Origin: Gammaproteobacteria bacterium
Lineage (GTDB): Bacteria > Pseudomonadota > Gammaproteobacteria > SZUA-140
Assembly (NCBI GenBank): GCA_015492435.1
Contig: WGFB01000014.1
Span: 15,728 to 79,727 of the forward strand
Length of the DNA stretch: 64,000 nt
Direction: 5' to 3'
The translations under genes and the position numbers were made by a program. Below, piece after piece: positions 1 to 16,679 of this stretch. A model generated the notes under the pieces. The model did no database searches. It saw only the letters and a list, made by a program, of their open reading frames with translations, and had not been told where the DNA came from. Position 1 is the stretch's first letter, and each line of letters starts with the position of its first letter.

Positions 1-833
1 TCCCTGATCATCTCCTCGGTCACGATACCTTTCTCCACGCACTCCTTGAGGAGCCCGAAGAAGAACCTTTCCTGATTGGGATCCGGGTGCGGCTTGTAAT
101 GCCCCATCAACCCGTACTCGCCGAACAGCTTGCGGCGCAGTGACTGAATCCACCCTTGGGGGGAGAAGCCCCGCACGCGCTCGGGAGGCCTGAAGTCAAC
201 GGGCAGGCCCGTCTTCCATGGCTGGGTCTTGCGCTTGGTGGTATGGAGCATCTTGGTCTTCTCGGTCAGCTTGTCGAAGTCGTTCCACTCATTCTCCAGC
301 AGGCCGATGGTTTCGCGCGGCTCGAGCTTGACGCAGATCCAGTCCATGTAGTCGCGCTTGAATTCGAACATCTCGTTAAACTGTTCCTCGACCCGCCAGT
401 GGGTCAGCTTGGCGCAGTCCAGCAGCATGACGCTGCTGGCGAGGCAGCCGTAGACCTTGCCCTTTCTGCCCGACCGGGGACGGCACATGATGGCCTTTCC
501 TTCCATGTCGCGGGACAACAGCTCCCAGACATCCCCCACGGCGAACACGTCGGGATCGATGACCACCGCCCTGCCCTGGTACCCCATCAGCTCGGGCGGC
601 ATGAACCGGGTGAGGGTGAACGACTGCAGATCGTCATTGAGCCAGGTGCGCTTGGCGCCGTCGCGCAGATAGAGCTGCCCTTCCTTCGCCTGGAAAAAAG
701 GATAGTCCTTCATATGCATGATGCGCACATCGAACTTGTCCGCGTGCCTGGAGTTCCGTTTCAGCGCGTATTCCGCAACCAACGCGCCAATGTATTGCTT
801 GTGATTGGTTTGGATGAATACACAGTGGTCCAT
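1..833 (-). CDS. Hypothetical protein, possible DXD-motif nucleotide-sugar transferase (gene runs off window start; start codon at 833)
   Basis: Own translation of the minus strand from ATG at 833..831 gives a stop-free protein to the window edge (MDHCVFIQTNHKQYIGALVAEYALKRNS...VVIDPDVFAVGD...EYGLMGHYKPHPDPNQERFFFGLLKECVEKGIVTEEMIR). It is absent from the ORF table because it is truncated. The overlapping plus ORF 156..980 has antisense-artefact composition (A/L/G/H/Q-rich). Function guessed only from the DPD motif and the neighbourhood. Confidence 0.5.
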   Translation of the reverse strand, partial: MDHCVFIQTNHKQYIGALVAEYALKRNSRHADKFDVRIMHMKDYPFFQAKEGQLYLRDGAKRTWLNDDLQSFTLTRFMPPELMGYQGRAVVIDPDVFAVGDVWELLSRDMEGKAIMCRPRSGRKGKVYGCLASSVMLLDCAKLTHWRVEEQFNEMFEFKRDYMDWICVKLEPRETIGLLENEWNDFDKLTEKTKMLHTTKRKTQPWKTGLPVDFRPPERVRGFSPQGWIQSLRRKLFGEYGLMGHYKPHPDPNQERFFFGLLKECVEKGIVTEEMIR

Positions 834-909: not shown

Positions 910-1845
910 TCAGCCACTGGCGGCGCGGCCTGGGGCTTCCGCCCCGTGGTAACCAAAGACCGGCGACAGGGACTCATTGACCAGCCCCTCGATCGCGGTA
1001 ATCTGCCTCTCGTCGAAATAATCGCTGTAGCCCCCTACCTTGGCGCGCCGCACCTTGTAGGAATTGGGGTTCTTGCGGTCCTTGGGCGCCATGCGCGTGC
1101 CGCTGAGCCAGAAGGTCCGTTTCTCCTCCAGCTTTTTCATATTCTCCACCGAGGAAAACTCCACGGCCTGGCGGATTTCCTCGTCGCTTCCGGGAGTCCC
1201 AATGAATTCAACGATTTGCCCCAGGACCTCGGCCGTCCTGGCCCGCAGGTCCTCATAGCGCACCACGAGCAGGTCGTCCATGCGCGGCAGTTCTTCCGCC
1301 CACAGGTTCATGAATGCAATGATCTTGGGCAGGCCGGCATCGGGGTCCATCACGAAGTCATAGATGGAGACGTCCCTGCCGTGTTCCGGATAGCGGTTGA
1401 GCTGCTTTTTTCTGGCGCGCATGCGGTACTTCCATTGGAAATACTGGGAAACCGCCACGTCGCGCGGGTCACGCACCAGGAGCACCACCTTTTTCCCAAG
1501 ATAATCCTCTTTTGAGTCATAGTGTTGGGTATAGTCCTTGAGATAGTTGTCATGGGTGAAATAAATCACGGGAACCGTGGGATTTCTGCGATGCAGATTA
1601 TCGTAGCTCATGAGCTGCCTCATGGACAGGCCGTGGCGAACCTGGTAGAAACGCGACAGCATCACCCGCAGCCAGGTGCGCCCGCTCTTGCCGTAGGAGA
1701 CCACCACGCAATCGGCCCGCCTGATCCAGCGCAGTTCCTCGCGCCCCCGCAACCATCGTTCGAGGGCGGTCTTTTTCTCCCGGGGCAGAAAAAACAACAA
1801 AAACAGGACTGTCTCCCGGGTCAGTTTGTTCAGAATAACGTGCAT
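910..1845 (-). CDS. Sulfotransferase family protein (PAPS-dependent)
   Basis: 311 aa. It has a 5'-PSB-like motif YGKSGRTWL (cf. canonical PKSGTTW) and a later RDPRDVAVS region typical of the 3'-phosphate-binding part of cytosolic-type sulfotransferases. Confidence 0.75.
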   Translation of the reverse strand: MHVILNKLTRETVLFLLFFLPREKKTALERWLRGREELRWIRRADCVVVSYGKSGRTWLRVMLSRFYQVRHGLSMRQLMSYDNLHRRNPTVPVIYFTHDNYLKDYTQHYDSKEDYLGKKVVLLVRDPRDVAVSQYFQWKYRMRARKKQLNRYPEHGRDVSIYDFVMDPDAGLPKIIAFMNLWAEELPRMDDLLVVRYEDLRARTAEVLGQIVEFIGTPGSDEEIRQAVEFSSVENMKKLEEKRTFWLSGTRMAPKDRKNPNSYKVRRAKVGGYSDYFDERQITAIEGLVNESLSPVFGYHGAEAPGRAASG

Positions 1846-1860
1846 AGTTTCCTCGGCGGT

Positions 1861-1895
1861 TAACCCGCATTTCTCACCAATATGGCGGGCAATCA
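1861..1895. repeat. ~30-bp conserved hairpin motif, copy 1
   Basis: TAACCCGCATTTCTCACCAATATGGCGGGCAATC, immediately upstream of the sulfotransferase start. Confidence 0.5.
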
Positions 1896-2168
1896 GGGTT
1901 CCATGGCCTTTTCGACGGCATCAGCCGTTGAGATACGCGCGGGTCGGCAGGACAGGCCGGATTGTCTCCCACCGGCCGGCATCATGCAAGGTTCGCAGGC
2001 CGCGCGGAGGCCAAGTATAAAAGAAAACCGTGCCTTTCGTAAGAGCGTGCGCGCCGCTCCGCGCCTGGCGCACCGGCCTTGGGAGCCGCCAGAAATTGTC
2101 CTCCGCGAAACAAATTTGCTATGTTCTCGTCTTCAGTGCATCTCTGGGAACCCGCCCCCGCCAGGTTC

Positions 2169-3236
2169 ATGAATCCGACATCCCCCGAAAAGCTCATTGT
2201 GGCAGTGTGCACCTATCACCGCCCCCACGGTCTGCGCCTGCTCCTGCGGGCGCTTGAGGCGCAGCGCTTCGAACATAATCCAGCGCCTGATATGGAAGTC
2301 CTGGTGGTCGATAACGGGGGTGATGCCGAAACCCGGCGCCTGTGCCAGGACTTCGGAAGCGGGCAGGCACCACTCCCCCTGCGCTATATCCAAGAACCCC
2401 GCGTGGGCATATCCCACGCCCGCAACGCGGTGCTCGATCACATTCCCGCCCACTGCGACTACGTGGCCCTGATAGACGACGATGAGATTCCATGTCCGCG
2501 CTGGCTGGATGAATTGCTGGCGCTCCAGCGCGCGACGGGCGCCGATCTGGTGCGGGGACCGGTGATCCCCCGGTATGCGCCCGGCACGCCGGCCTGGATC
2601 ACGCGGGGAAATTATTTCGGCTGGCCCCGCCCCGAACAGCGCATCACGGACGGCCAGAACCTGGAGCAGGGGGCGACGAACAACATGTTGCTGCGCTGGT
2701 CCGCGGTGCGCGCCACCGGCGCGCGCTTCGACACCGGGCTTGCCCGTACCGGTGGCGAAGACACGGTCTATTTTCATCAGTTGATTCACGCGCACAAACT
2801 GAAAATGGTCTTTGCCGCCCGCGCCTGTGTCACCGAGACAATCCCCCCCACCCGCACATCCCTGCGCGCCTTGCTGAGGCTTCACTTCCGGCTGGGCGCG
2901 AACAGATTGTTGAAGAAAACACTGCGCGCTTCTCCCGGAGACAACAAGGTCATGCTGACGATCGTGCACGCCGGCAAGGGCGTACGGCACGTTCTCCTCG
3001 GCACCGCGGGCCTGTTCACATGCTGGCTCCCCGGGGGGGGCGGGCGGATGCGGGCCCTGGATTCACTGCTGCGCCTGGCGAGAGGCGCGGGACACTTCGC
3101 CGGCCTGCTTGGCCTGCGCTACCGCTATTACGGCGGCATCCCCCATAGCCTGGCAAGCGACGTTCATGCCCCGCCCGAGGAATGGGATACCCGCCGGGAA
3201 AAGTCCGCCTCGAAGCGCCGCAGGCGGTCACAATAG
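2169..3236 (+). CDS. Glycosyltransferase family 2
   Basis: IVAVCTYHRPHGLRLLLRALEAQ...VLVVDNGGDAE...ALIDDDEIP (DXD) is the GT-A fold signature. Start moved to the ATG at 2169 (MNPTSPEKLIVAV). Confidence 0.8.
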   Translation: MNPTSPEKLIVAVCTYHRPHGLRLLLRALEAQRFEHNPAPDMEVLVVDNGGDAETRRLCQDFGSGQAPLPLRYIQEPRVGISHARNAVLDHIPAHCDYVALIDDDEIPCPRWLDELLALQRATGADLVRGPVIPRYAPGTPAWITRGNYFGWPRPEQRITDGQNLEQGATNNMLLRWSAVRATGARFDTGLARTGGEDTVYFHQLIHAHKLKMVFAARACVTETIPPTRTSLRALLRLHFRLGANRLLKKTLRASPGDNKVMLTIVHAGKGVRHVLLGTAGLFTCWLPGGGGRMRALDSLLRLARGAGHFAGLLGLRYRYYGGIPHSLASDVHAPPEEWDTRREKSASKRRRRSQ

Positions 3237-4060
3237 CCGCGATCCCGCTTCGAAGCCCCCTTGGGATACCAGATCAGCCCTCCGCCGCCAAATCTCAGGT
3301 CCACGATACTGTCGTCGAGCGACATGAACTTCAGGCGGGGCGTCTTCCGGTTGAAGCGCAGGAAAAAGTCGTAGATGACCATCTGGTCGAGCTTCTCAAG
3401 CAGGTGGCCATGCGCCACGAAGCGCCCGATCTGCCCGCCGACGGCGCGCAGAAAGGCCATGGCCTGACGCGATGGGGAAATGTACAGCGTGCCCGCCAGC
3501 AGCTTCGTGTTCCCGCCATGTTTGTCAAAGCGCGCATAGAAAGCCAGATCCGCTGCCCCAACTTTGTCTTTCAGTTCCTCGATGGGACCCACCAGCAGCG
3601 CGTCGATATCCAGGCACAGGCAGGGCGCGCCCGCCCCTGCCGCGATCTCCGCAAAGCGCACAAAACGCACGGAATAGTAATACCGCCCGCGCCGCTCGTC
3701 ATCATGGCGGTCCAGATCGACATGCTCCCAGGTATGGGAGAAATGGGGCACCGCCCCGCCGGAGAGTTCCGCAAGCAGTTGCAATTGCGCCGGCGCGGGA
3801 TTGAACAGATGAATATGGATGCCCGAGCCAGGCGCATTGGCCAGCAAGGCGGCGATGAAGGCGCGCCCGTATCGCTCGAAATAGGCGGCGTCGGCCGCGG
3901 CAAAAAAAAGCAGAGGCGCGCCGATACCAGAAGGCATGTGGCCTTCCAGCGGGGGAAGCGCTGTCTCACGCCTGGCATCCTCCACCGCGGGCAACCACTT
4001 GTCCAACCACCGGTAGGAAAGACTGCCCCATGTCTTGCGCAGATATTTACCAAGCTTCAT
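3164..4060 (-). CDS. Hypothetical protein (possible DXD-containing transferase; CLCLDIDALLVGP)
   Basis: 298-aa ORF with coding-like composition and no recognisable family. It sits among glycosyltransferase genes. Its 3' end overlaps the GT2 3' end convergently by 73 nt. Confidence 0.45.
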   Translation of the reverse strand: MKLGKYLRKTWGSLSYRWLDKWLPAVEDARRETALPPLEGHMPSGIGAPLLFFAAADAAYFERYGRAFIAALLANAPGSGIHIHLFNPAPAQLQLLAELSGGAVPHFSHTWEHVDLDRHDDERRGRYYYSVRFVRFAEIAAGAGAPCLCLDIDALLVGPIEELKDKVGAADLAFYARFDKHGGNTKLLAGTLYISPSRQAMAFLRAVGGQIGRFVAHGHLLEKLDQMVIYDFFLRFNRKTPRLKFMSLDDSIVDLRFGGGGLIWYPKGASKRDRGYCDRLRRFEADFSRRVSHSSGGA

Positions 4061-4175: not shown

Positions 4176-5066
4176 TTAAAATGACAGGGAATCTTCATCA
4201 CCGTGACGCGCCCGCGCCTCCATGACATCGATGTAATGCCATCCCTCGACCTCGATTCTGTCAGGAAGCCAAAGACGCGATGGCCATCCCAGGTGATACT
4301 TGGGAGCGATGATGGTCCTGCCGCTGACCTCGTTGAGCCACCCGCCCCACCAGGAGAAACTGCTGTTGGCGATGATATTATATTTGCAGCGCGTGAACAA
4401 AAACATGTCGACCACGCCGGGGTTTCCCCGCGTGACAACCTTGTTGCTGATACCGGAAAAGACCCGTGACGCAAACTCCACGTCATCACTGACAATGACA
4501 TGGAACAGATCGCCGGGAAGCCGGGAAAGCGCTTCCTTGTAATATGCCAGCGGCAATATCCAGCCTATGCCATCGCCCTTGCGGGCCATCTCCATATAAT
4601 CTCCCCGCCTGATATGGATGCAACACCGCCTGGAGCTGGGCGCGGGCCATTGCGCCTCTATCTCGCCGATCAGGCGCCTGTAGCGGGGGCGGGGAGTAAA
4701 CCATTGCAGGACCTGCCGCCTGTTTTCCGCGAAATAGAGAGGGGACTGGAAGAAGCCCCGCACGGTCACGCCGTCGCTGACATCGAAGAACCGGCTGTCG
4801 AAACACTCGTCGTGTATGCCTCGGCTGTAATGCTTTCTGCGCGGCCGGAACGTCTCTCCCCCCAAGGGATGGCGCAGGCGGTAACGCAGCCGGTTGGCGG
4901 CCAGGGACAAGGTTGTCTCGCCATCCAGCTCGAAATACCTGTGCAGGGAACCCTTGCGCCCCCCGCGGAAGCAGAACGCGTAGCCTTTTTGCCCGGCCAG
5001 TGTCTTGCAGGCCGCGTACTGGAACATATTGTTCCCGGTCTGGGCGATCAGCTTCAGCATGATCAT
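4176..5066 (-). CDS. Glycosyltransferase family 11 (alpha-1,2-fucosyltransferase-like)
   Basis: Motifs IHIRRGDY and NSSFSWWGGWL match GT11 motifs I and III (HxRRGD; SxFSWW). The N-terminal GNNMFQYA matches GNQMFQYA. Start probably the internal ATG (MIMLKLIA). Confidence 0.75.
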   Translation of the reverse strand: MIMLKLIAQTGNNMFQYAACKTLAGQKGYAFCFRGGRKGSLHRYFELDGETTLSLAANRLRYRLRHPLGGETFRPRRKHYSRGIHDECFDSRFFDVSDGVTVRGFFQSPLYFAENRRQVLQWFTPRPRYRRLIGEIEAQWPAPSSRRCCIHIRRGDYMEMARKGDGIGWILPLAYYKEALSRLPGDLFHVIVSDDVEFASRVFSGISNKVVTRGNPGVVDMFLFTRCKYNIIANSSFSWWGGWLNEVSGRTIIAPKYHLGWPSRLWLPDRIEVEGWHYIDVMEARARHGDEDSLSF

Positions 5067-5162
5067 GATGGCAGCCCCCGGCGGCGACATTGCAACAACG
5101 CGGGCAAGCCTATTCCATATCGGCAATCTGAACGCAGCGCTCCGCGGGACCTTTGCATGGAA

Positions 5163-6278
5163 TCAGTCCGTCTCTTCAAGCAGCGCCTTCAGGCGCGCCA
5201 CCACGCGCGGCAACTCATCCGCGGGCCTGTTTCCCGCGGGAAGGAAATCCTCTCCCAGGGATACCGCCAGCCCCCTGTCCAGCAATACCCGGTGCAAGGC
5301 GGTGAGATCGCGCGCATACCCCAGTATTCCCAGGCGGCGGAATAGCGCGCCCAGCGCCTCACCGAGGGCGCCGCCATTCCCGCCTCCCGCCAGCCTGGCC
5401 ACCCATTGTTGCAGGCGGCTCGCGGGATCTTCCCTGACGGGCAGAGGGAAAATCGCCAGCGGCCTGCCCAGGCGCGCCACTTCCACCATCATGGAAACGC
5501 TGTCGCCGGTCACGATGAAATAGTCGGCCAGGCCGAGCAGCGCACGGTAGGGATTGTCCTTGCCGTCCCTGCGCCACTGGTAGAAACGGGCGTTTCCCGG
5601 CAGCGCGTCCTGGACAGCCTTCACCACCGGCAGCGGCGTGCGCCTGCTGGTAGTGGCATAAAGCGTCCCCCCCGCCTTATCAGCAAGGGCGGAGGCCCTG
5701 CCCACCAGGTCCCGCGCCACGCTTGCATCGAACACAAAGGGCTTGGTGGCGCCGCCGATCATGAGCGCGAAAACGGGACGTTGCAAGGCGGCGAAACGTT
5801 CGCGCCAGGAAGCAGCCGCCTCGGCAATGGCACGCTCGTCCGGCCGCATGAGAGGCAGGTCGAGGCGCAGCACATTGGGCCTGTCGGGCAGATGATACTG
5901 AGATGGCGCGATGATCAGGGCGTAGTCATCCAGGCCCCGCTTGGGGCGTCCCACCAGCACGACCCGGCTCCGCCCTCCACTCTGTTTGCGTATCCACATG
6001 GCCACCATCGCGGAGCGGCGCCCGATGGTGAGGATGAGATCCGGCCATGGCGGCTGCAACGCGTCCGATTTTTGCCGGTCGATGTGATAGAGAGAGGCCT
6101 TGAAGGGAGGCTTGCCCAACACATATTGTTCCAGGGGATAGACACGCTTGGTCTCGCAGGGCAGCCCCAGGGCCTCGGCGATGATTTCCACCTGGGCATT
6201 GTCGCCCAGCTTGTCACTGAGCACCAGCCAGATGCGGGGCGCCTGGCGCGCGTTGTCGGGGACAAAGGGAGTGGACAT
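5163..6278 (-). CDS. ELM1/DUF1022 family protein (predicted GT-B-like transferase)
   Basis: 371 aa. PWPDLILTIGRRS...VVLVGRP...YALIIAPSQYHLP...FALMIGGATKPFVFD...NPYRALLGLADYFIVTGDSVSMMVEVARLGRPLAIF fits the mitochondrial-fission ELM1-like family seen in LPS-core clusters. Confidence 0.6.
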   Translation of the reverse strand: MSTPFVPDNARQAPRIWLVLSDKLGDNAQVEIIAEALGLPCETKRVYPLEQYVLGKPPFKASLYHIDRQKSDALQPPWPDLILTIGRRSAMVAMWIRKQSGGRSRVVLVGRPKRGLDDYALIIAPSQYHLPDRPNVLRLDLPLMRPDERAIAEAAASWRERFAALQRPVFALMIGGATKPFVFDASVARDLVGRASALADKAGGTLYATTSRRTPLPVVKAVQDALPGNARFYQWRRDGKDNPYRALLGLADYFIVTGDSVSMMVEVARLGRPLAIFPLPVREDPASRLQQWVARLAGGGNGGALGEALGALFRRLGILGYARDLTALHRVLLDRGLAVSLGEDFLPAGNRPADELPRVVARLKALLEETD

Positions 6279-6411: not shown

Positions 6412-7536
6412 ATGAACGATTTGTCATCCTCCATCGGCGTCCCGGCCGACCCGCCAACCGTCTGGATCATCACCGGCTACCGCGCCGGGGAAGATACGCA
6501 GATTCTCGCCCTCGCCGAGGCCCTGCAATGGCCCTTCTCCACCAAGCGCCTCGTTTACCAGGCCCATGATTTCATACCCGGCCTGCTGCGCCTGGCCTCG
6601 CTGAAGGGCATCAATCTGGCCCGCTCCAGCCCCCTTGTCCCGCCCTGGCCGGACCTGGTCATCTCCGCGGGCATGCGCAATGAACCCGTATGCCGCTGGA
6701 TCAAGGCGCAATCCGGGGGGAGAACGCGCATTGTCCTGCTGGGCAGGCACTGGGCGCGGCTGGAGCACTTCGATCTCGTCATCACCACTCCCCAATACCG
6801 CCTCCCGCAAGATACAAAAATTCTGCACAATATCACGACCCTGCACCGGGTCAACGAAAACATGCTGCGGGAGGCCTGCACCCGGCATGCCGCCACCCTG
6901 GCCGGCTTGCCGCGCCCCCACATCGCGGTGATCATGGGCGGCAGCAGCGGTCCCTATACCCTTGGGCGGCGTGCCGCGCGGCGCCTGGCCCGCCAGGCCT
7001 GCGCAATGGCACGCGCCCAGGGAGGCGCCCTCCTCGTCACCAGCAGCTCGCGCACCCCCGCCGCCGCCATCGATGCCTTTTCCGCGGCCGCCGCATGCCC
7101 CATGCGCTTCTACCGGTGGAAACCGGCCGACAAGGCCAACCCCTATTACGCCTTCCTGGCCTCGGCCGACGCCATTATCGTCACGGGTGACAGCATCGCC
7201 ATGCTCTCGGAAGCCTGCGCCACGGGAAAACCCGTCTATATTTTCGACCTGGGAACGGGCAGGGAGGCCATGCGCCCCCTGCCAGCAGGCTCAAGGCACG
7301 CCCGCGGCAGCGCGGAGCGGAACGATTTCCGGCTGGGCGCGTTGCTCTACAAGCTGCTCATGCGCCACGGCCCGCAACGGCTGACACGCGACATCCGCCT
7401 GGTACACAGTCAATTGACCGCCTCGGGGCTGGCCACCTGGCTGGACGAAACATGCACGCCACCCTCCCCGGGCCAACGCCCCCCCGACAGCATCGAGCGC
7501 GCCGTGGCGCGGGTACGCTCAATGCTCGGCCGGTGA
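6412..7536 (+). CDS. ELM1/DUF1022 family protein (paralog of 5163..6278, divergently transcribed)
   Basis: 374 aa with the same motif series as its neighbour (PWPDLVISAGMRN...IVLLGRH...DLVITTPQYRLP...IAVIMGGSSGPY...NPYYAFLASADAIIVTGDSIAMLSEACATGKPVYIF). Confidence 0.6.
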   Translation: MNDLSSSIGVPADPPTVWIITGYRAGEDTQILALAEALQWPFSTKRLVYQAHDFIPGLLRLASLKGINLARSSPLVPPWPDLVISAGMRNEPVCRWIKAQSGGRTRIVLLGRHWARLEHFDLVITTPQYRLPQDTKILHNITTLHRVNENMLREACTRHAATLAGLPRPHIAVIMGGSSGPYTLGRRAARRLARQACAMARAQGGALLVTSSSRTPAAAIDAFSAAAACPMRFYRWKPADKANPYYAFLASADAIIVTGDSIAMLSEACATGKPVYIFDLGTGREAMRPLPAGSRHARGSAERNDFRLGALLYKLLMRHGPQRLTRDIRLVHSQLTASGLATWLDETCTPPSPGQRPPDSIERAVARVRSMLGR

Positions 7537-9255
7537 GCGCACCGGGATGAGCCGCTCGTCCTGCAGGCGGTAGACCCGGTCGGCGATGTCCACCAGCGCC
7601 GTCTGGTGCGAGATGGACAGAACCGTCAGCCGCCCCGCCAACTGTTTCAAGGTGTCGCAGATGGCGCCCTCGCTCTTGGGATCCAGGGCGCTTGTCGCTT
7701 CATCCAGGATCAGCAGCTCCGGCCGGTGCGCCAGCGCGCGCGCGATCATGATGCGCTGGCGCTGACCGCCGGAAAGGCTGGCGCCACGCTCCCCGACCAC
7801 GCTGTACATACCGTCACGCAAATCTGAAACGAACTCCCAGGCCCCGGCCGCCCGCAAGGCGTATTCCGCGTCCGCTTCATCCAGCCCGGGATCGCCCAGA
7901 GTGACATTGTGAAACACGTTGTCATGAAGGAGCAGGTTTTCCTGGGGCACATAGCCGATCTTTCTGCGCCACTGGCGCAGATCCATCTCTCTCAGATCCA
8001 CGCCATCTATGAGTATGGCGCCATGCTGGGGTTGCAGCAGGCCGGTGATGAGGTCGACAATGGTCGTCTTGCCGGCCCCGGAAGGACCCGTCAACGCCAC
8101 CAGGGAGCCCTTGGGTATCACCGCCGAGGCATCGCGCAGGACGACTTTCTCACCATAGGCAAAATCGACGCCCTGCAGGCGGATGTCCCGCTCAAATCTC
8201 GGCGGCAGCGTGCCCGTGGAGATCTCGCGGGTTTCCTGCGCCTCGCGAGTGGTCTGATCGATGGACCAGAAGGCGCTTTCCGCGGTCACCATCTTCTGAT
8301 ACCAGCGCTGTATCTTTCCCATTTGCGCCATGATGCGCCCCAGCAACAGGGCCAGCATGAGCATGGTGGAAGCCGGCACTTCCCACATCACCAGGGCCAC
8401 ATAAATTCCGATGGCTATGAATCCCACGAACATGGGTTCCTGGATGGCCTGCAGCACGGCCTTGCTGAAGACCTCCTTCTGCAGGGCACGATTGAGTTTC
8501 GATGTCTCGGCCGCCATCACTTCGTCGGCCAGGTCTTCCCTGCCCATGGCCTTGAGTGGCTTGACGGACTGCAGGGTGTCGGTAAGGCGGCCGAGGAGAG
8601 ACTTCAGCAGCTTGGTCTGGCGCTTGCCGGCGCGGCGCGACATTCTCACCAGGGCATACGTGACGACGAGCACCAGCAACCCCGCACCCAACGCGGCCAG
8701 GGTGGCTTGCCAGGAAATCAGCAGGGCCACGATGATATAGACGACCGCTTCGATACAGCGGGCGATCATGGTCGTGCCATAGATATAGGCCTCCGAAGCG
8801 CGCATGGCCTCGGTGGTCATGGCATTGGCCATGCGCCCCGCCGGCTGCCGGATGAAGTATTCCCAACGGGAGGCCAGCACGGCGCGCAGCAGGGACAGGC
8901 GCAGATCGGTGGTGACCTGCGCGGCGGTGTAGCCGATCTGCTTGCGCGCCGCCAGCAGGAGCAGATTCTTGACCACAATCCCCACCATCACGATGATCAG
9001 CAACACACCAATGGAGGGCGTCAGGCCGACGTCATGCAACACGCCGCGCACGATCTCCTCCAGTCCACTGCCATCCTGGCCGCCTCCATCCGTCCCCGGA
9101 ACTTTGTCCCCCTCCCCCTGATCCAGGGCCAGGCTGAGCAGGGGCAGCAAGGCGGAGAGGCTGATCCCCTCGGAAATACCCGCCAGCAACAGGGCGAGCA
9201 GCATCAGGACGGACTGCCAGGGATATACGCGGAAGAATTTCAGAAGTATATGCAT
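7519..9255 (-). CDS. ABC transporter permease/ATP-binding protein, MsbA-like lipid exporter
   Basis: 578 aa. N-terminal 6-TM domain followed by an NBD with Walker A GPSGAGKTT, signature LSGGQRQR and Walker B LILDEATSALD. Confidence 0.85.
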   Translation of the reverse strand: MHILLKFFRVYPWQSVLMLLALLLAGISEGISLSALLPLLSLALDQGEGDKVPGTDGGGQDGSGLEEIVRGVLHDVGLTPSIGVLLIIVMVGIVVKNLLLLAARKQIGYTAAQVTTDLRLSLLRAVLASRWEYFIRQPAGRMANAMTTEAMRASEAYIYGTTMIARCIEAVVYIIVALLISWQATLAALGAGLLVLVVTYALVRMSRRAGKRQTKLLKSLLGRLTDTLQSVKPLKAMGREDLADEVMAAETSKLNRALQKEVFSKAVLQAIQEPMFVGFIAIGIYVALVMWEVPASTMLMLALLLGRIMAQMGKIQRWYQKMVTAESAFWSIDQTTREAQETREISTGTLPPRFERDIRLQGVDFAYGEKVVLRDASAVIPKGSLVALTGPSGAGKTTIVDLITGLLQPQHGAILIDGVDLREMDLRQWRRKIGYVPQENLLLHDNVFHNVTLGDPGLDEADAEYALRAAGAWEFVSDLRDGMYSVVGERGASLSGGQRQRIMIARALAHRPELLILDEATSALDPKSEGAICDTLKQLAGRLTVLSISHQTALVDIADRVYRLQDERLIPVRSPAEH

Positions 9256-9299: not shown

Positions 9300-10502
9300 T
9301 CAATTTTCCAGGATTCTCCCGCTCAGGGCGCCAAAGGCATCGACGACGGCATCGATCTGGGCGGCGCTGTGGGCCGCGCTGAGGCTGCAACGCAACAGGC
9401 ATTCCGTGGTCGGCGAGGCGGGTGGCATCACCAGGTTCACATAGACCCCCTTGTCCAGAAGGTCATGCCAGACTTTCAGGGCGCTGTCCTTCGATCTGCC
9501 CAGGGTGACGGCAACGACCGGGCTGGATTCGGGTCCCATCCTGAAACCGAAGGCCTTGAGCCCCTGGTACAGGCGGTGAGCGTTGTCCCACAGGCGCTTG
9601 CGCAGCTCAGGACCCTGTTCCCGCAGGATACTCAGGGCGACGCGGGTGGAGGCAATGATGGAAGGCGACGAGGAGGCCGTAAAAATATAGGGACGCATGG
9701 CATAGCGTGCATGCTCCAGTTCCTGCCACCTGCTGACGCAGAACCCGCCGATGGCCCCCAGGCTCTTGCTGAAGGTGCCGACGATGAAATCCACGTCCTC
9801 CTCCACGCCCGCCTGCTCCACCAGTCCCCGCCCTCGCTCCCCCAGAACGCCCAGGGAATGGGCCTCGTCCACCATCAGATAGGCTCCGTGGCGGCGCTTG
9901 ACTTCCACGATCTCCTGGAGGGGCGCCTGATCGCCGATCATGCTGTAGATGCCTTCCACGACAACGAGGGCCGATTCCGCCTTGTCTCCCAGGCGCCTGA
10001 GACGCTTATCCAGATCGGCGGGGTCGTTGTGACGAAAGCGGATGACCTCCGCATTGCCGAGACGGCAGCCATCATAGATGCTGGCATGGCTGTCCGCGTC
10101 CAGGAGAATGGCGTCCGAGGCGCCTGGTATGGTGGACAGTATACCCAGGTTGGCGATGTAACCCGTCGAAAACACGATGGAGGCCGGCAGTCCGAAAAAC
10201 TCCGCCAGTTCCCTTTCCAGCGCCAAGTGGCCGGCATAGGTGCCATTGGCCATGCGGGATCCCGTGGTGCCGGTTCCCTCCTCTTCCAGCGCCTTCCTGC
10301 CCGCGGCGATGCAGCGTGGATCGAAGGTCAGCCCCAGGTAGTTGTTGGTGCCCGCCAGGATGGTGCGGCGGCCGTTGACAATGGCCTCCGTCTCCGAAAG
10401 CACCTGCTCGACGACGACGTTGAAGGGATTGGCATCCAGTCTTGCCACATCTTCTCGCAGGTTGGCATAGTACTGGAACTTATCAAAGATCGACCGTGTC
10501 AT
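9300..10502 (-). CDS. spt: Serine palmitoyltransferase (alpha-oxoamine synthase family)
   Basis: 400 aa and very close to Sphingomonas SPT: ILAGTNNYLGLTFDP...GSRMANGT...IVFSTGYIANLGILST...ILLDADSHASIYDGCRLGNAEVIRFRHND..DLDKRL...GTFSKSLG (the PLP lysine). Confidence 0.85.
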   Translation of the reverse strand: MTRSIFDKFQYYANLREDVARLDANPFNVVVEQVLSETEAIVNGRRTILAGTNNYLGLTFDPRCIAAGRKALEEEGTGTTGSRMANGTYAGHLALERELAEFFGLPASIVFSTGYIANLGILSTIPGASDAILLDADSHASIYDGCRLGNAEVIRFRHNDPADLDKRLRRLGDKAESALVVVEGIYSMIGDQAPLQEIVEVKRRHGAYLMVDEAHSLGVLGERGRGLVEQAGVEEDVDFIVGTFSKSLGAIGGFCVSRWQELEHARYAMRPYIFTASSSPSIIASTRVALSILREQGPELRKRLWDNAHRLYQGLKAFGFRMGPESSPVVAVTLGRSKDSALKVWHDLLDKGVYVNLVMPPASPTTECLLRCSLSAAHSAAQIDAVVDAFGALSGRILEN

Positions 10503-10753
10503 TCACTCAGTTCCTGGAGGCTGACCGCCAGGTCCCTGACCGTGTTGATATCGGGCAACCGATTGAGAGGTATGGAGATATCCAGATGATCCTCGATCTC
10601 CATGAGCAGTTCAAGCAACCTGACGGAATCAATATCGAGATCGGCGACAAGCTGGGTTTCTTCGTTCAGCCGCTGGTTGGCCTCGCTGGCAAAAGGCTTT
10701 AACACTTCATAGAGTGCGTCGAGTATTTCCTGATATTGTTTCATGTCGTTCAC
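10499..10753 (-). CDS. acp: Acyl carrier protein (sphingolipid-dedicated ACP)
   Basis: 84 aa, acidic. DLDIDSVRLLEL is a phosphopantetheine attachment motif. The gene overlaps the spt start by 4 nt. Confidence 0.8.
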   Translation of the reverse strand: MNDMKQYQEILDALYEVLKPFASEANQRLNEETQLVADLDIDSVRLLELLMEIEDHLDISIPLNRLPDINTVRDLAVSLQELSE

Positions 10754-10963: not shown

Positions 10964-11036
10964 CAAGCCATGATCAATTCAACCCGCGGGAAAGGCGGCA
11001 TTTTAGCGCGATTCCTTGCCGAATTCTAACCCGCCT

Positions 11037-11112: not shown

Positions 11113-12057
11113 CTACCGCGTCCCGTGGGAGGGATACAGGGTTTTTCTCAGCCCTTCCGAAAGTGAAATACGCGGCGCCCAGCCACAGGCATCCCGCCAG
11201 GGCGAGGTGTCATGGCATACCCAGTCTTCATGGAGCAATTCCCGCGCCTTGCCAGGGGTCAGCATGGGGGCGTATCCGGCCACGCGGGCCATCTGTCCAT
11301 TGAGCGCGGCGAGGCCACGCAGCGCCCAGGAGGGAAGATAGCATTTCCTCACCCTGGCACCACGGAGGCTGGCAACCGCTGCCACCACATCTTCCCAGCC
11401 ATAACCACCAGCCCGTCCGTCATCCAGTTCATAGACCCCGCTCCGGCCGGATGGCATCTCCAGGCCACATAGAATGGCCCGCACCAGATCATCGACATAG
11501 AGCAGGGAAAAACGCGCTTGCCTGGAGCCGGGAATAAGGGCCAGGCCACGGGCCATCCACTGGAACAAGGGCAGGAGTTCACGGTCGCCGGGACCGTAGA
11601 CCGCCGGCGGACGCAACGCCAGCCACTCCAGCTTCTCTCCCAGAGCGAGAAGGACTTCCTCTCCTCCGCGCTTGCTGGCGGCATAGTGGGACAAGGCGGG
11701 CTCGCGGGCCGCCAGGGAAGACAGCGCGATGAGGCGGGGCGGGCAGGGTTGCGCCAGCACGGCACTGGCCATTTTCCTCACACCTTCCACGTTGACGCGG
11801 TCGAACTGGGCCTGGGTACGGCCGCGCACGGCGCCGGCACAATGGATCACGGCCCTGACACCGCGCGTCAGGTGTTCGAGGCAGTCCTGATCGTCCAGGT
11901 CCCCGCTGATCCATGCGAGGCCCGGCCGGGCCGGTGATTCCAGGGGACGGACGGCCCGCCTGAGGGCGCGCACTTCCCAACCCTGGTCCAGCAACGCCTT
12001 GACCAGGGCGCGCCCGATGAATCCCGTCGCGCCGGTGACTGCTACGCTGCGGGACAC
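11113..12057 (-). CDS. cerR: NAD-dependent epimerase/dehydratase family reductase (bacterial 3-ketodihydrosphingosine/ceramide reductase CerR candidate)
   Basis: 314 aa. N-terminal Rossmann motif VTGATGFIGRALV. It sits between acp and the acyl-ACP synthetase, as in the Caulobacter ceramide cluster. Confidence 0.6.
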   Translation of the reverse strand: MSRSVAVTGATGFIGRALVKALLDQGWEVRALRRAVRPLESPARPGLAWISGDLDDQDCLEHLTRGVRAVIHCAGAVRGRTQAQFDRVNVEGVRKMASAVLAQPCPPRLIALSSLAAREPALSHYAASKRGGEEVLLALGEKLEWLALRPPAVYGPGDRELLPLFQWMARGLALIPGSRQARFSLLYVDDLVRAILCGLEMPSGRSGVYELDDGRAGGYGWEDVVAAVASLRGARVRKCYLPSWALRGLAALNGQMARVAGYAPMLTPGKARELLHEDWVCHDTSPWRDACGWAPRISLSEGLRKTLYPSHGTR

Positions 12058-12090: not shown

Positions 12091-13896
12091 TTATTGATCT
12101 CCCGCTGCCGCGGTCTGCGTTTCCCAGTCGTGCGCCTCAATGAAATTCTGGCGCGCCTTGGACCGCGAGAGCTTGCCGGAGGAGGTGCGCGGCAGGGTAT
12201 GCAGGGGCACCAGCTCCACATAGCAGTCGATGCCCAGTTCGGAACGCACGCGCTGCTTGAGGCGGCTGACCAGGCAGGCCTGGACCGCGGGATCCTTCTT
12301 GCGGCACTGAACCACCATCACGGTGGTCTCCTTGCCGCCCGGACCGGGCGCCGAGAAGGCCAGGGCATCGCCCGTGCGCACTTCGGGCTGCTGCTCGGCC
12401 AGATACTCCAGATCCTGGGGCCAGATGTTGCGCCCGTTGATGATGATAAGGTCCTTCTCCCGGCCCGTGATCACGAGCTGGCCGTCGAGGCGGTATCCGA
12501 TATCACCCGTGTTCAGCCAGCCGTCCGCGGACAGGGTCCGGCGCGTGATCTCGGGCTCGTTGAAGTAGCCGGACATGACGCTGGGGCCACGCAAGTAGAT
12601 CGTGCCGCTGTGACGCTCTGGCAGGGCATTACCCTCCTGATCACGTATTTCCACTTCGAAACCCGGCAGCGGGGTTCCGCAGACAACGAAGGATCGGGTG
12701 CGGGGGGACAGATCTTCCTTGTTACCGCCCGGCACCTCACGTGCCTCGTGACACTTGGCCAGATGATCGGCGTCGATGCGATCCACCTGCAGGCCCGTGT
12801 TGAGGGGCGCGAAACTGATGGCCAGGGAACATTCGGCCATGCCGTAGCAGGCCAGGAAGGCCTTGGGATCGAAGCCGCTGGGTTCCAGCGCCTTTGCGAA
12901 TCTCAGCAGCGGCTCGGAGCGGATCATCTCCGCACCGACTCCGGCAATGCGCCATGCGCTGAGGTCCAGCTTGCTGGCCTCGCCCGCGCGTATGCAGCGC
13001 TCCACCAGTTCATAGCCGAAGGGCGGGCCGAAGGAAATGGTCGCCTTCGTTTTGCTCATCAGGGACAACCATTGACGCGGGCGCATGGCGAATTCGCGTG
13101 TGCCGAGATAGTCGACGGATACCTGAGAAGTGACGGGCACGAGCACCAGCCCCACGAATCCCATGTCGTGATAGAACGGCAGCCAGGACACGTAACGGTC
13201 TCCTGGAACCATTTTCAGGCCGTGCTTGATGATGCCCGCCAGATTGTCCAGCACTGTTTCCTGGGTGATCATGACGCCGCGCGGGAAGCGGGTACTGCCG
13301 GAGGTGTATTGTATGTAAGCCAGTTCGTCGGACTCCAGGGGACGCAGGGCCTGCTGGCTTTCGGGGAAGTTCTCGAAGTCCACCGGATCGCCGACGAAGG
13401 CCATGTCCAGGCCCTCGGCCGCTTCCTCCAGATAGGGCAGGAAACCCGCGGCGGAGACGCCTACCGAGGCATTGCAACTGGTCAGCATGGAACGCAGATG
13501 AGCGACGTAGGCCTCGTGTCCGCCCAGGCTGATGGGGATGGGGAGCGGCACGGGCACCAGGCCCGCGTACTGACATGCAAAGAAGAATCGCAGGAAGTCC
13601 GGATGCGTCTCGGCAATCAGCGCGACGCGCGCGCCGCGTTCCAGTTCCAGGCCGAGAAAACGGCGGGCCAGTATTCGTGCTTCCTGACGCAGCCTGGCAT
13701 AGGAGAGTACGGCATATACTTCGCCTCGCCCGGTATAGAAATTACAACCGGTTTCCCCTTGAGCCGCATAGTCCAGGGCTTCCGCAAGATTGGAAAAGTC
13801 GGCTGCACGGAATGGCAAAGTATTATGGGTAGGTGTCGTCTCCAGATCCAAATTAACCTCCTTAATACTTCTCCTGTTGGTTTCTGTCCCTAGCAT
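12091..13896 (-). CDS. Fatty acyl-AMP ligase / acyl-ACP synthetase
   Basis: 601 aa. AMP-binding motifs YTSGSTRFPRGV, YGMAE, TGDIG and the C-terminal SSGKLSR lysine motif. Good RBS (AAGGAGG) upstream. Confidence 0.8.
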   Translation of the reverse strand: MLGTETNRRSIKEVNLDLETTPTHNTLPFRAADFSNLAEALDYAAQGETGCNFYTGRGEVYAVLSYARLRQEARILARRFLGLELERGARVALIAETHPDFLRFFFACQYAGLVPVPLPIPISLGGHEAYVAHLRSMLTSCNASVGVSAAGFLPYLEEAAEGLDMAFVGDPVDFENFPESQQALRPLESDELAYIQYTSGSTRFPRGVMITQETVLDNLAGIIKHGLKMVPGDRYVSWLPFYHDMGFVGLVLVPVTSQVSVDYLGTREFAMRPRQWLSLMSKTKATISFGPPFGYELVERCIRAGEASKLDLSAWRIAGVGAEMIRSEPLLRFAKALEPSGFDPKAFLACYGMAECSLAISFAPLNTGLQVDRIDADHLAKCHEAREVPGGNKEDLSPRTRSFVVCGTPLPGFEVEIRDQEGNALPERHSGTIYLRGPSVMSGYFNEPEITRRTLSADGWLNTGDIGYRLDGQLVITGREKDLIIINGRNIWPQDLEYLAEQQPEVRTGDALAFSAPGPGGKETTVMVVQCRKKDPAVQACLVSRLKQRVRSELGIDCYVELVPLHTLPRTSSGKLSRSKARQNFIEAHDWETQTAAAGDQ

Positions 13897-14703: not shown

Positions 14704-15858
14704 ATGGAAAACTGCTGCGCCATGTCTGAATCATCAAGGTTTCACATCGTACCCGTCGGGAACGCCAGGCAACTGGAAACATTTATCCGGATGCCATGGC
14801 CCATCTACCGCGATGACCCGGCCTGGGTTCCCCCGCTCATATACGAGCGCAAGGAACACCTGTCGGAAAAAAACCCTTTTTTCCAACACGCCCGCTGGCA
14901 GGCCTGGCTGGCCATGGACGAAGACCGCCCAGTGGGACGCATCAGCGCCCAGATTGACCAGTTGCACCTGGAACGCTATGACGACAAGTGCGGCCATTTC
15001 GGCATGCTGGAAGCCATCGACAACCCGGCGGTTTTCTCTCTGCTGCTGAACACGGCGGAGCAATGGCTGCGCGATCAGGGCATGGCCCTGATCCGCGGTC
15101 CATTCAACCTCTCCATCAATGAAGAATGCGGGCTCCTGGTGGAGGGCTTCGACACACCGCCCTCCCTCATGATGGGACATGCCCGGCCTTACTACGGCCC
15201 GCATGTGGAAGGCCAGTCCTACAGCGTGGTTAAGCAATTGCTGGCCTATCGTATTGCCACCAGGAAACAGCCTCCGGAAATCATGCAAAAGCTGACGCGC
15301 AAGGCCGGCCGCACCGCGACGGCGCGCCCCCTGAGACGCAAGGAAATCGACAAGGAGCTGGAGATCATGCAGGACATCTTCAACGATGCCTGGTCCAACA
15401 ACTGGGGATTCGTTCCCTTCACCGCCGAGGAATTCAAGGAGGTCGGGCGCAACCTCCTGATGCTGGTCAGCGACGACTTCGTGCAGATCGCGGAGATCGA
15501 CGGCGAGCCGGTGGCCATGATGGTTGCCCTGCCCAATGTCAACGAGGCCATCAAAGACCTGGATGGCAGACTCTTTCCAACGGGATTTCTGAAGCTGCTG
15601 TGGCGTCTCAAGGTCAAATATCCGCGCAGCGGGCGCATCCCCCTCATGGGGGTGCGCAAGCGTTATCATCATACCCCCCTGGGGCCCGGACTGGCTTATC
15701 TGATGATTTCCGCCATCCGTGACGCCGTCTTGAAACGCGGCATCCAGGATATGGAAATGTCCTGGATACTGGAGGACAATGCCGGCATGCGCCATATCTT
15801 GGAAACCGCCGGCGCCGAAATTTACAAGCGCTACAATATTTATCAGAAATCATTGTGA
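14704..15858 (+). CDS. GNAT-fold N-acyltransferase, bacterial ceramide synthase (bCerS) candidate
   Basis: 384 aa with coding-like composition. It is divergently oriented to the spt-acp-cerR-ACP-synthetase block across an AT-rich control region. The family call rests on context and size, not on clear motifs I could verify by eye. Confidence 0.5.
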   Translation: MENCCAMSESSRFHIVPVGNARQLETFIRMPWPIYRDDPAWVPPLIYERKEHLSEKNPFFQHARWQAWLAMDEDRPVGRISAQIDQLHLERYDDKCGHFGMLEAIDNPAVFSLLLNTAEQWLRDQGMALIRGPFNLSINEECGLLVEGFDTPPSLMMGHARPYYGPHVEGQSYSVVKQLLAYRIATRKQPPEIMQKLTRKAGRTATARPLRRKEIDKELEIMQDIFNDAWSNNWGFVPFTAEEFKEVGRNLLMLVSDDFVQIAEIDGEPVAMMVALPNVNEAIKDLDGRLFPTGFLKLLWRLKVKYPRSGRIPLMGVRKRYHHTPLGPGLAYLMISAIRDAVLKRGIQDMEMSWILEDNAGMRHILETAGAEIYKRYNIYQKSL

Positions 15859-16679
15859 CAGCGCGCACACGGGCCACACCCCTGCCTGACCAGCCCCGTT
15901 TCAGTGCCATCATCCTGGCGGGGGACCGCCGCCCCGGGGACCCACTCGTTCTGAAGGCGGGGGTCGCCGGCAAGGCCTTGATCCCCGTCGCCGGCATTCC
16001 CATGGTCCAACGCGTCGTCAGCGCCCTTGAGGAAAGCCGTTTCATCGGCAGGCGCATACTCTGCGGGCCGCCCCGCGACGCCCTGATAAGCGCCCCCCGC
16101 CTCCTGGAGATGATTCAGGCGGGTGAAGTCGAATGGATGGAGAGCCAGCCTTCCCCATGCCTCAGCGCCATCCACTCCATGGCGCGCATTCCCGATACGG
16201 AACCCGTGCTGCTCACCACGGCGGATCACGCACTGCTGAGCACGGAGATTCTTGACGAATTCTGCCGCCACGCACTCGACCACAAGCATGATGTGATGGC
16301 GGGCCTGGCACGCCACGAGGACATTCTGCGCGCCTACCCGGAAACGAACAGGACGTCCCTGCGCTTTCGCGATGGCGCTTTCAGCGGCTGCAACCTGTTT
16401 GCCTTTCCCACTCCGGCAGGCCGCCGCATCACGGCATTCTGGCGCCGCGTGGAGCAACAACGCAAGAACCCCTTCCGGGTCGTGAGCGCGGCGGGCTGGA
16501 TGGCTGTCCTGCGCTATGCCTTGGGCCGGCTGACCCTGGAAGAAGGACTGCAGCGCATCTCCCGGCGCCTGGATCTGCGTGTCGGGGTCGCTGTCTTGTC
16601 CCAGCCCGAAGCAGCCATCGACATCGATACTGTTGAAGACTGGAAATTGGCCGACAAAATAGCCAGGGAACGCCCGTAA
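15855..16679 (+). CDS. MobA-like NTP-transferase domain protein (nucleotidyltransferase)
   Basis: 274 aa. The N-terminus AIILAGDRRPGDPL...KALIPVAGIPMVQRVV is typical of MobA-like and sugar-phosphate nucleotidyltransferases. It overlaps the bCerS stop by 4 nt (ATGA), which implies translational coupling. Confidence 0.7.
   Translation: MTARTRATPLPDQPRFSAIILAGDRRPGDPLVLKAGVAGKALIPVAGIPMVQRVVSALEESRFIGRRILCGPPRDALISAPRLLEMIQAGEVEWMESQPSPCLSAIHSMARIPDTEPVLLTTADHALLSTEILDEFCRHALDHKHDVMAGLARHEDILRAYPETNRTSLRFRDGAFSGCNLFAFPTPAGRRITAFWRRVEQQRKNPFRVVSAAGWMAVLRYALGRLTLEEGLQRISRRLDLRVGVAVLSQPEAAIDIDTVEDWKLADKIARERP

Follow-up and report, generated by a model that had tools for sequence, protein, structure and literature searches.

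A conserved PAPS-type sulfotransferase that may sulfate a glycosylated sphingolipid in bacteria

Introduction

To our knowledge, sulfate-ester lipids are known in bacteria from a few cases only, and we know of no sulfated sphingolipid from any bacterium. What, then, does a sulfotransferase act on when its gene lies among those for ceramide synthesis? The question is raised by a stretch of 64,000 nucleotides, here called the window, from a gammaproteobacterium of the GTDB lineage SZUA-140 (GenBank assembly GCA_015492435.1, contig WGFB01000014.1, positions 15,728 to 79,727), in which such a gene is found at positions 910 to 1845. In a preliminary description of the window, its product was proposed to be a cytosolic-type sulfotransferase that uses 3'-phosphoadenosine 5'-phosphosulfate (PAPS), divergently paired with a GT2 glycosyltransferase in the same island as the ceramide genes. 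We followed up this proposal by profile searches, structure prediction and a comparison of gene neighbourhoods. On balance, we favour a role of the enzyme in the PAPS-dependent sulfation of a glycosylated sphingolipid head group, resulting in an outer-membrane lipid.

Results

The gene encodes a PAPS-type sulfotransferase

The open reading frame is intact, starts with ATG and is preceded, 3 nt upstream, by the Shine-Dalgarno-like stretch GAGGAA; its GC content is 0.58 and that of its third codon positions (GC3) 0.77. The encoded protein matched the Pfam family Sulfotransfer_1 (PF00685) with 87.6 bits (E=1.1e-24, against a gathering score of 22) over profile positions 3-249 of 255 and, more weakly, Sulfotransfer_3 with 35.4 bits, in agreement with the proposed PAPS-type sulfotransferase. 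Because of this Pfam score and the 6,213 homologues found in the protein database at E<=0.001, the identity of the reading frame is far beyond chance. None of the NCBIfam models names the protein. Sulfotransfer_1 and Sulfotransfer_3 were its only Pfam matches at E<=0.01, so that neither the Galactose-3-O-sulfotransferase family nor a Stf0 family was among them, and no Stf0 chain occurred among its 35 PDB sequence matches (E<=0.01). A second sulfotransferase gene was not found within the window.

Both motifs named in the preliminary description can be read directly in the sequence, GKSGRTW at residues 52-58 and RDPRD at residues 125-129 (window 1459-1473). A sequence search of the PDB yielded plant SOT16 and SOT18, the glycopeptide sulfotransferases Teg14, Teg12 and StaL, and human SULT2A1 and SULT1A1, with E values from 1e-10 to 1e-5. 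These alignments are in register over the 5'-phosphosulfate loop, the 3'-phosphate motif, a YED segment and a C-terminal RxxKxGG segment. K53 in GKSGRTW is presumed to be the catalytic lysine. The SOT16 alignment puts the THIP of that enzyme at the non-conserved H109 instead of H98, a placement which we judged to be an alignment slip. Across 24 aligned relatives, G52-W58 including K53, as well as H98, R125, S133, Y197, R266, K269 and G271-G272, are invariant. The PAPS-binding residues, on which the assignment had been made to depend beforehand, are all present on alignment, and because of this the protein is predicted to be a bona fide PAPS-type sulfotransferase with the full catalytic apparatus.

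The AlphaFold2 (AF2) model of the protein, built on the alignment of the 24 relatives, has a mean predicted local distance difference test score (pLDDT) of 82.6 and a predicted TM-score (pTM) of 0.81. When the model was compared to the PDB with Foldseek, 50 of the 50 matches listed had the sulfotransferase fold, with a probability of 1.00 and TM-scores of about 0.5. The top matches were SOT16/18, SULT7A1, SULT2A1 and Teg12, and the listed structures were mostly solved with PAPS or with 3'-phosphoadenosine 5'-phosphate (PAP). The predicted fold therefore resembles that of cytosolic-type sulfotransferases, as had been suggested; by fold and chemistry, the protein is an ordinary member of the superfamily.

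In the AF2 model, the N-terminal helix spans residues 2-16 and is followed by a strongly basic helix; residues 3-20 have a mean Kyte-Doolittle hydropathy of 1.52 (18-residue window). The helix may tether the protein to the membrane, with the catalytic domain on the cytoplasmic side, and the enzyme is probably a cytoplasm-facing, membrane-tethered O-sulfotransferase. A loop at residues 244-270 is invariant in the alignment, yet was modelled with low confidence; it takes the place of the substrate-covering loop of SULTs.

The sulfotransferase belongs to a large, unnamed family

The best 120 of the 6,213 homologues are 62-97% identical to the window protein and nearly all 298-371 aa long. At the genome level, relatives are encoded in at least 576 species-level genomes, and the best 80 genome matches are 58-78% identical. 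Among the carriers are the Gammaproteobacteria Thiogranum, Thiohalobacter, Competibacteraceae, Methylococcales and Sedimenticola, the Alphaproteobacteria Fodinicurvata, Algihabitans, Defluviicoccus, Aquibaculum, Pelagibius and Kiloniellales, and also Myxococcota. Cultured organisms such as Algihabitans albus, Fodinicurvata halophila and Benzoatithermus flavus have the gene together with the partner genes described below. A library of representatives at 50% identity gave 4,477 matches at E<=0.001 and 393 at E<=1e-30; the orthologue group is therefore nested in a broader clade of bacterial sulfotransferases. The family is large, unnamed, uncharacterised and widespread in bacteria.

Two or three sulfotransferase paralogues were present in 18 of 80 related loci, often together with a 2OG-Fe(II) oxygenase gene and a Lip_A_acyltrans gene, which hints at multiply sulfated products. 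Such multi-paralogue clusters include the loci L021, L022, L025, L026, L029, L062, L063, L072 and L076, besides others.

The sulfotransferase travels with two putative glycosyltransferase families

To find conserved partners, gene neighbourhoods were compared in 81 non-redundant genome loci (L numbers), with up to 10 kb on each side. A GT8-like putative glycosyltransferase gene, here termed GTx, is the direct neighbour of the sulfotransferase gene in 60 of the 72 loci that are informative. Of these, 51 have it downstream on the same strand, with a median gap of about 99 bp, and 9 have it in convergent orientation. In the remaining informative loci it is found elsewhere in the locus (5) or is absent (7); the other 9 loci were left out of this count, as their contigs end too soon. 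The window holds 277 residues of GTx, over which a full-length copy of 302 aa (P0121) is 100% identical; the copy in a 97%-identical relative (L084) is at 11013-11921. The gap between the sulfotransferase and GTx in the window is 76 nt long and contains a weak terminator-like hairpin at 887-873 on the minus strand, and no sigma-70 site was found between the two genes. The number of such hairpin sites counted (5) exceeds the shuffled expectation of 1.9 +/- 1.4 only modestly.

GTx has 6,362 homologues, and the source names among the 120 listed are all 'hypothetical protein' or 'uncharacterized protein'. It has no match above cut-off in Pfam or NCBIfam; Glyco_transf_8 scored below its cut-off (14 bits vs 24.3, E=0.039) and over residues 68-117 only. 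A DPD motif (D93-P94-D95) is invariant in the GTx alignment. The predicted model has a pLDDT of 70.8, and its top Foldseek matches in the PDB are mostly GT8 enzymes (GlyE, glycogenin, XXYLT1, LgtC and LARGE1) with probabilities of about 1.0 and TM-scores of only 0.3-0.4. From this model we describe GTx as GT8-like and not as a demonstrated GT8 member. GTx genes often occur as tandem duplicates.

The second partner is a gene for an ELM1-like protein (PF06258), which is present in 59 of the 81 loci and within 2.5 kb of the sulfotransferase gene in 40 of these. The only bacterial ELM1-like member that has been studied is Acinetobacter baumannii 2903, a WaaA-like protein needed for the third Kdo/GlcNAcA on Kdo2-lipid A of the lipooligosaccharide (LOS) core (PMC10936431). 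Across the loci, the ELM1a and ELM1c-like types are nearest to the sulfotransferase, and the ELM1b type is beside an ABC (ATP-binding cassette) exporter and serine palmitoyltransferase (SPT). A single island has three diverged ELM1-like paralogues, two of them in the window at 5163-6278 (-) and 6412-7536 (+) and the third at 12926-14020 (-) in L084.

In Methylococcales and Methylothermaceae, the ELM1-like gene, the sulfotransferase gene and GTx are on their own, with pntAB on one side and a pseudouridine synthase gene on the other, suggesting that this trio is a self-contained unit. The orthologue group is tightly conserved and travels with the putative GTx and ELM1-like glycosyltransferases.

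The GT2 gene was rejected as a functional partner of the sulfotransferase. It does adjoin in the window as a divergent neighbour, as the preliminary description had it, but the pairing is not kept elsewhere: a GT2 homologue was found in 4 of 83 loci only.

These linkages bear on two other possible acceptors. First, the enzyme could sulfate the lipid itself, at the ceramide C1 hydroxyl, the long-chain base or a hydroxy-fatty acid, resulting in a ceramide sulfate, with the glycosyltransferases acting elsewhere. In the nearest solved relatives, the hydroxyls used are hydrophobic ones, belonging to sterols, bile acids and glycopeptide aglycones. Genes for a fatty-acid hydroxylase and the 2OG-Fe(II) oxygenase recur beside family members, and the N-terminal helix of the enzyme is hydrophobic. 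However, the strongest linkage is to two glycosyltransferase families and not to ceramide-synthesis genes, and a ceramide-kinase-like enzyme of the island would compete for the C1 hydroxyl. We regard direct sulfation of the lipid as very unlikely.

Second, the acceptor could be an undecaprenyl-linked repeat unit, a finished capsule, exopolysaccharide or O-antigen, or an unrelated soluble metabolite, with the sphingolipid genes as mere neighbours. There is a precedent in marine bacteria, in which sulfated capsular polysaccharides with cluster-encoded sulfotransferases are known (PMC11641403, PMC11766843), and some of our loci have genes for AsnB, an aminotransferase, a methyltransferase and GT4, as polysaccharide clusters typically do. 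On the other hand, neither the window nor the annotated relatives showed a Wzx/Wzy polymerase pair, Wza/Wzc export genes or a priming phosphoglycosyltransferase. Moreover, the 58-78% identity over three phyla and the constancy of the partner gene point to one conserved acceptor and not to strain-variable polysaccharides. Among the acceptors considered, this group seems to us the least probable.

The trio is repeatedly embedded in sphingolipid islands

The features of the window are listed in Table 1. The SPT gene lies 7.5 kb from the sulfotransferase gene and has beside it genes for an acyl carrier protein (ACP), a reductase of the short-chain dehydrogenase/reductase (SDR) family and a fatty acyl-AMP ligase, so that the claim of a shared island with ceramide genes stands. 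The ACP gene overlaps the start of the SPT gene by 4 bases, and the SDR gene holds the position of cerR in the Caulobacter locus (PMC9393093, PMC11324152). A MsbA model gave 255 bits with the ABC exporter, under its cut-off of 602; the exporter adjoins SPT also in Methylomarinovum and Methylohalobius. The 384-aa protein is a candidate bacterial ceramide synthase by inference; in L087, L088 and L089, the corresponding place between a nucleotidyltransferase (NTase) gene and that of the acyl-AMP ligase is taken by genes of 376-381 aa without a confident family match. The NTase of the window might be CpgD-like, CpgD being a nucleotidyltransferase of the Caulobacter sphingolipid locus (PMC12275187).

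Table 1. Features of the window around the sulfotransferase gene
Feature	Position	Strand	Evidence
GTx, GT8-like putative glycosyltransferase, 277 of 302 aa in window	1..833	-	cut by window edge
PAPS-type sulfotransferase, 311 aa	910..1845	-	Pfam, alignment, AF2, Foldseek
3'-phosphate-binding motif RDPRDVAVS (R125...S133)	1447..1473	-	aligned to SOT16 RDPKDTFIS, Teg14 RNPRDILLS
H98 in FTHDNY, presumed catalytic base	1552..1554	-	invariant; aligned to KTH histidine of Teg14/Teg12
5'-phosphosulfate-binding loop GKSGRTW, residues 52-58	1672..1692	-	sequence; alignment to PKTGTTW/PKAGNTW of SOT16/Teg14
N-terminal hydrophobic helix, residues 2-20, possible membrane anchor	1786..1842	-	AF2 and hydropathy
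Divergent intergenic region, sulfotransferase-GT2	1846..2078		no sigma-70 consensus site found
GT2 glycosyltransferase	2079..3236	+	Pfam Glycos_transf_2 62.7 bits
298-aa protein, DID (DxD-like) motif	3164..4060	-	no Pfam match; motif from translation
GT11-like (fucosyltransferase-family) glycosyltransferase	4176..5126	-	Pfam Glyco_transf_11 62.8 bits
ELM1-like putative glycosyltransferase (a)	5163..6278	-	Pfam Mito_fiss_Elm1 183.7 bits
ELM1-like putative glycosyltransferase (b)	6412..7536	+	Pfam Mito_fiss_Elm1 192.4 bits
MsbA/HepA-like ABC exporter, candidate lipid flippase	7519..9255	-	ABC_membrane and ABC_tran
SPT	9300..10502	-	NCBIfam equivalog NF047599 627.9 bits vs cut-off 500
ACP	10499..10753	-	PP-binding 36.6 bits
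SDR/epimerase-family reductase, ceramide reductase-like	11113..12057	-	Epimerase 98.6 bits; 3Beta_HSD family also matched
Fatty acyl-AMP ligase (FAAL), acyl-ACP synthetase-like	12091..13896	-	AMP-binding 187.6 bits; NF006624 788 bits vs cut-off 600
384-aa protein, candidate bacterial ceramide synthase	14704..15858	+	no Pfam or NCBIfam match
NTP_transf_3 nucleotidyltransferase (NTase; CpgD-like?)	15855..16679	+	Pfam 40.8 bits

The sphingolipid neighbourhood turned out to be larger than the preliminary description had seen. In the 97%-identical relative (contigs L084 and L085), the island continues beyond the left edge of the window. Leftward in L084 follow two consecutive GTx genes, the third of the ELM1-like genes, a gene for a 317-aa protein with weak similarity to Tam41-type nucleotidyltransferases, a ceramide-kinase-like DAGK_cat gene, a metallophosphoesterase gene, LptG and LptF; the sulfotransferase gene is therefore in the middle of the island and not at its margin. 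LptG and LptF of L084 (17172-19446, minus strand) score 343 bits (cut-off 240) and 304 bits (cut-off 230), respectively, with the NCBIfam equivalogs of the canonical lipopolysaccharide (LPS) permeases. No NCBIfam model matched GTx, the ELM1-like genes, DAGK or the 317-aa protein.

In the cultured Thiogranum longum, the island is one uninterrupted run from acyl-AMP ligase to ACP. This locus is from an assembly of run SRR7173102, and NCBI assigns the GTx protein encoded in that assembly to T. longum. The order is acyl-AMP ligase, a GNAT-like 381-aa protein, NTase, metallophosphoesterase, DAGK_cat, an unknown gene, ELM1 and sulfotransferase, followed by a further unknown gene, sulfotransferase, GTx, GTx, GT4, a Wzy_C-like gene, ELM1, LptF, LptG, ABC, ELM1 and ACP. 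In Kiloniellales and Pelagibius, the trio lies in a different order beside genes for a fatty-acid hydroxylase, a bCerS-like protein, NTase, metallophosphoesterase, LptF/G, DAGK and SPT. In Myxococcota, a fused LptF-LptG gene adjoins the sulfotransferase gene. For instance, the gene directly upstream of that for the sulfotransferase in L081 (7541-9826, minus strand) codes for a single protein of 762 aa in which two LptF_LptG domains are joined, and the fusion is also found in L064, L074 and L078, from metagenome-assembled genomes labelled Myxococcota and Deltaproteobacteria.

Of the 37 loci with full flanks, 15 have a sphingolipid-specific gene within 10 kb of the sulfotransferase gene, or 18 if LptF/G or the ABC exporter is counted as well. 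For a co-occurrence of spt with the bare trio of Methylococcales, the evidence is at the family or genus level: Methylomarinovum and Methylohalobius, which stand for the family and the genus of some trio-only loci, have SPT, and their ceramide cluster is located elsewhere.

Other features of the islands and the window

An order of NTP_transf_3, a protein of about 380 aa, acyl-AMP ligase, SDR, ACP, SPT and ABC exporter is shared by the window, L088 and L089. The NTase and the protein of about 380 aa are at 4722-6774 in L088, at 4728-6649 in L089 and at 14704-16679 (+) in the window. Methylomarinovum tepidoasis and a Methylohalobius genome have this ceramide order with neither a glycosyltransferase nor a sulfotransferase gene after it.

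A Wzy_C gene (O-antigen-ligase-like) occurs with GT4 in or beside a sphingolipid-type island in L087 (13362-14543, minus strand), L006, L007, L011, L015, L019, L032, L052 and L065. It is possible that in such islands a polymer is ligated onto the glycolipid.

The GT2 gene of the window probably starts at 2121, as called in the relative (371 aa in L084). The 298-aa protein may, from its sequence, be a further GT-A glycosyltransferase; its motif stands in the context CLDIDALL, and homologues were found in only 3 related loci.

In Pfam, the larger genes surveyed in the window beyond 17.9 kb match only housekeeping functions. A Psr/Phs-type molybdopterin oxidoreductase set is encoded at 23149-27697 (-), with NrfD-like, 4Fe-4S and molybdopterin subunits, and a 1,262-aa YhdP phospholipid-transport protein at 42458-46246 (-). 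Both are in keeping with a diderm host that metabolises sulfur, and have no relation to the sulfotransferase finding.

A PAPS synthesis gene is next to one sulfotransferase copy

In Fodinicurvata halophila (L033), a cysNC fusion gene is located at 7059-8993 (-), about 1 kb upstream of the sulfotransferase copy. Its product has the GTPase motif GHVDHGKST and the APS-kinase motifs GLSGAGKST and LDGDNVR. L033 is the only one of 86 loci in which a gene for PAPS synthesis is beside the sulfotransferase gene.

Discussion

A proposed pathway for the sulfated lipid

The trio is repeatedly embedded in sphingolipid islands despite rearranged gene orders, and we therefore favour a glycosylated sphingolipid as the acceptor. 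In the mechanism that we propose, ceramide would be made and perhaps phosphorylated by the DAGK_cat enzyme. The ELM1-like, GT8-like, GT2 and GT11-like enzymes would then glycosylate it on the cytoplasmic side of the inner membrane. The sulfotransferase would hold PAPS via K53-T57 (5'-phosphosulfate), R125 and S133 (3'-phosphate), and Y197 and R266-G272 (nucleotide). H98 would deprotonate one sugar hydroxyl, and in-line transfer of the sulfuryl group from PAPS would leave PAP. The resulting anionic lipid would be flipped by the MsbA-like ABC exporter and moved to the outer leaflet by the Lpt machinery. There, the sulfate would provide a fixed negative charge, as phosphates do in lipid A and phosphoglycerates in CPG2 of Caulobacter.

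Several observations weigh against this proposal. We infer the acceptor, and with it the lipid nature of the product, from the gene neighbourhood only; the preliminary interpretation as a whole is supported by our data. The trio has neither a sphingolipid nor an Lpt gene within 10 kb in 19 of the 37 full-flank loci, and in Methylococcales it is alone between housekeeping genes. The closest solved relatives of the enzyme sulfate small hydrophobic molecules or glycopeptides and not glycolipids. Genes cysC, cysN and cysD were not found in the 64-kb window by a motif scan or by tblastn with the CysNC of L033. Since LptF and LptG of the island pass the canonical NCBIfam cut-offs, they may be housekeeping genes and not sphingolipid-specific ones as in Caulobacter. 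In addition, a Wzy_C/WaaL-like gene is present in 8 loci and Lip_A_acyltrans in 11, and the sole ELM1-like protein studied works on Kdo2-lipid A and not on ceramide (PMC10936431).

The main alternative is that the trio adds a sulfated sugar to the lipid A-core oligosaccharide of LPS or LOS, in which case the proximity to sphingolipid genes would reflect a clustering of outer-leaflet lipid pathways that share Lpt export. GT8 is the family to which the LPS-core alpha-glycosyltransferases belong, and one of the Foldseek matches of GTx is LgtC. The requirement of A. baumannii 2903 for the third Kdo/GlcNAcA on Kdo2-lipid A (PMC10936431) points the same way, as do the canonical scores of LptF and LptG, the recurrence of Wzy_C/WaaL-like, GT4 and Lip_A_acyltrans genes by the trio, and the half of the full-flank loci in which the trio is found without sphingolipid genes. 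However, the trio is bracketed by sphingolipid genes in three lineages with differing gene orders, and neither the window nor the annotated loci showed an lpx, waaA or kds gene. The WaaL-like and Lip_A_acyltrans genes co-occur with SPT or DAGK in some loci, and the ABC exporter is kept with SPT even where the glycosyltransferases are absent. Taken together, we consider the LPS core a rather unlikely acceptor, and continue to favour the glycosylated sphingolipid.

A broader idea is that a widespread, conserved pathway, found in at least several hundred species among Gammaproteobacteria, Alphaproteobacteria and Myxococcota, builds an LPS-like sulfated oligosaccharide on ceramide or ceramide phosphate by means of the WaaA-like ELM1 enzymes, the new GT8-like family and the sulfotransferase, with flipping by the MsbA-like exporter and Lpt export. 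In some lineages, a WaaL-like ligase may extend the product. We put this forward tentatively, as a doubtful extension of the sphingolipid reading. If true, the product would be the sphingolipid counterpart of lipooligosaccharide, with sulfate replacing phosphate as the charge carrier.

Novelty and significance

Our literature search for a sulfotransferase tied to bacterial ceramide or sphingolipid loci found nothing, and a search for sulfated LPS core or sulfated Kdo found nothing bearing on this sulfotransferase family. The orthologue group, its fixed partnership with two uncharacterised glycosyltransferase families and its location in sphingolipid islands are not described in the literature searched. 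A sulfated outer-leaflet glycosphingolipid would be a new lipid class for bacterial envelopes and a phosphate-free means of charging the cell surface. It would also give functions to two large families, the 'hypothetical' GTx and the ELM1-like proteins, and would extend the recent finding in Caulobacter that anionic sphingolipids can stand in for lipid A. The module is conserved and experimentally tractable and may make a sulfated glycosphingolipid, and the cultured carriers make the question directly testable.

Comparison with known systems

The PF00685 enzymes SOT16/SOT18, SULT2A1 and Teg12/Teg14/StaL share with the sulfotransferase the fold, the lysine of the 5'-phosphosulfate-binding loop, the catalytic histidine, the R...S pair and the RxxKxGG segment. 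However, the identity is only about 20%, and the sulfotransferase has an extra N-terminal helix and the invariant loop 244-270. The setting differs as well, being the assembly of a membrane glycolipid here and the tailoring of small molecules or antibiotics in the cytosolic and glycopeptide sulfotransferases.

GAL3ST1, the cerebroside sulfotransferase by which eukaryotes produce sulfatide, is a type II membrane protein of the Golgi lumen. If our reading is true, both enzymes share the chemistry and the product class, namely sulfation of a sugar on a glycosphingolipid. In contrast to GAL3ST1, which is from a different sulfotransferase family, the enzyme described here must use cytoplasmic PAPS.

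PAPS-dependent sulfation of envelope glycolipids, lipo-oligosaccharides or LPS is carried out by Mycobacterium tuberculosis Stf0 (sulfolipid-1) and by Sinorhizobium meliloti LpsS and NodH. Unlike the sulfotransferase of the window, these are not known to be linked to sphingolipid, GT8-like or ELM1-like genes; LpsS and NodH were compared by description only.

A. baumannii 2903 belongs to the same family, PF06258, as three genes of the island and, with its WaaA-like fold, is a builder of a lipid-anchored oligosaccharide. It differs in that it works on Kdo2-lipid A, and no sulfotransferase partner has been reported for it.

In its parts, the island as a whole parallels the locus for the anionic sphingolipids CPG and CPG2 of Caulobacter crescentus. 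In that locus, CC_1152-CC_1168, the genes for ceramide synthesis are joined by the one for the ceramide kinase CC_1160 and by those for nucleotidyltransferases, LptC2/F2/G2 and a candidate flippase (PMC11324152; PMC9393093; bioRxiv 10.64898/2026.04.12.717747). The words 'sulfotransferase' and 'ELM1' do not occur in the main texts of PMC11324152 and PMC9393093, nor does 'glycosyltransferase' in that of PMC11324152. Shared with Caulobacter are spt, acp, a cerR-like SDR gene, an acyl-ACP synthetase-like ligase, DAGK_cat, one or more nucleotidyltransferases, a candidate ABC flippase and LptF/LptG, whereas in the island described here about eight putative glycosyltransferases and the sulfotransferase are inserted. 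This insertion implies a glycosylated, sulfated head group, either instead of or atop the phosphoglycerate.

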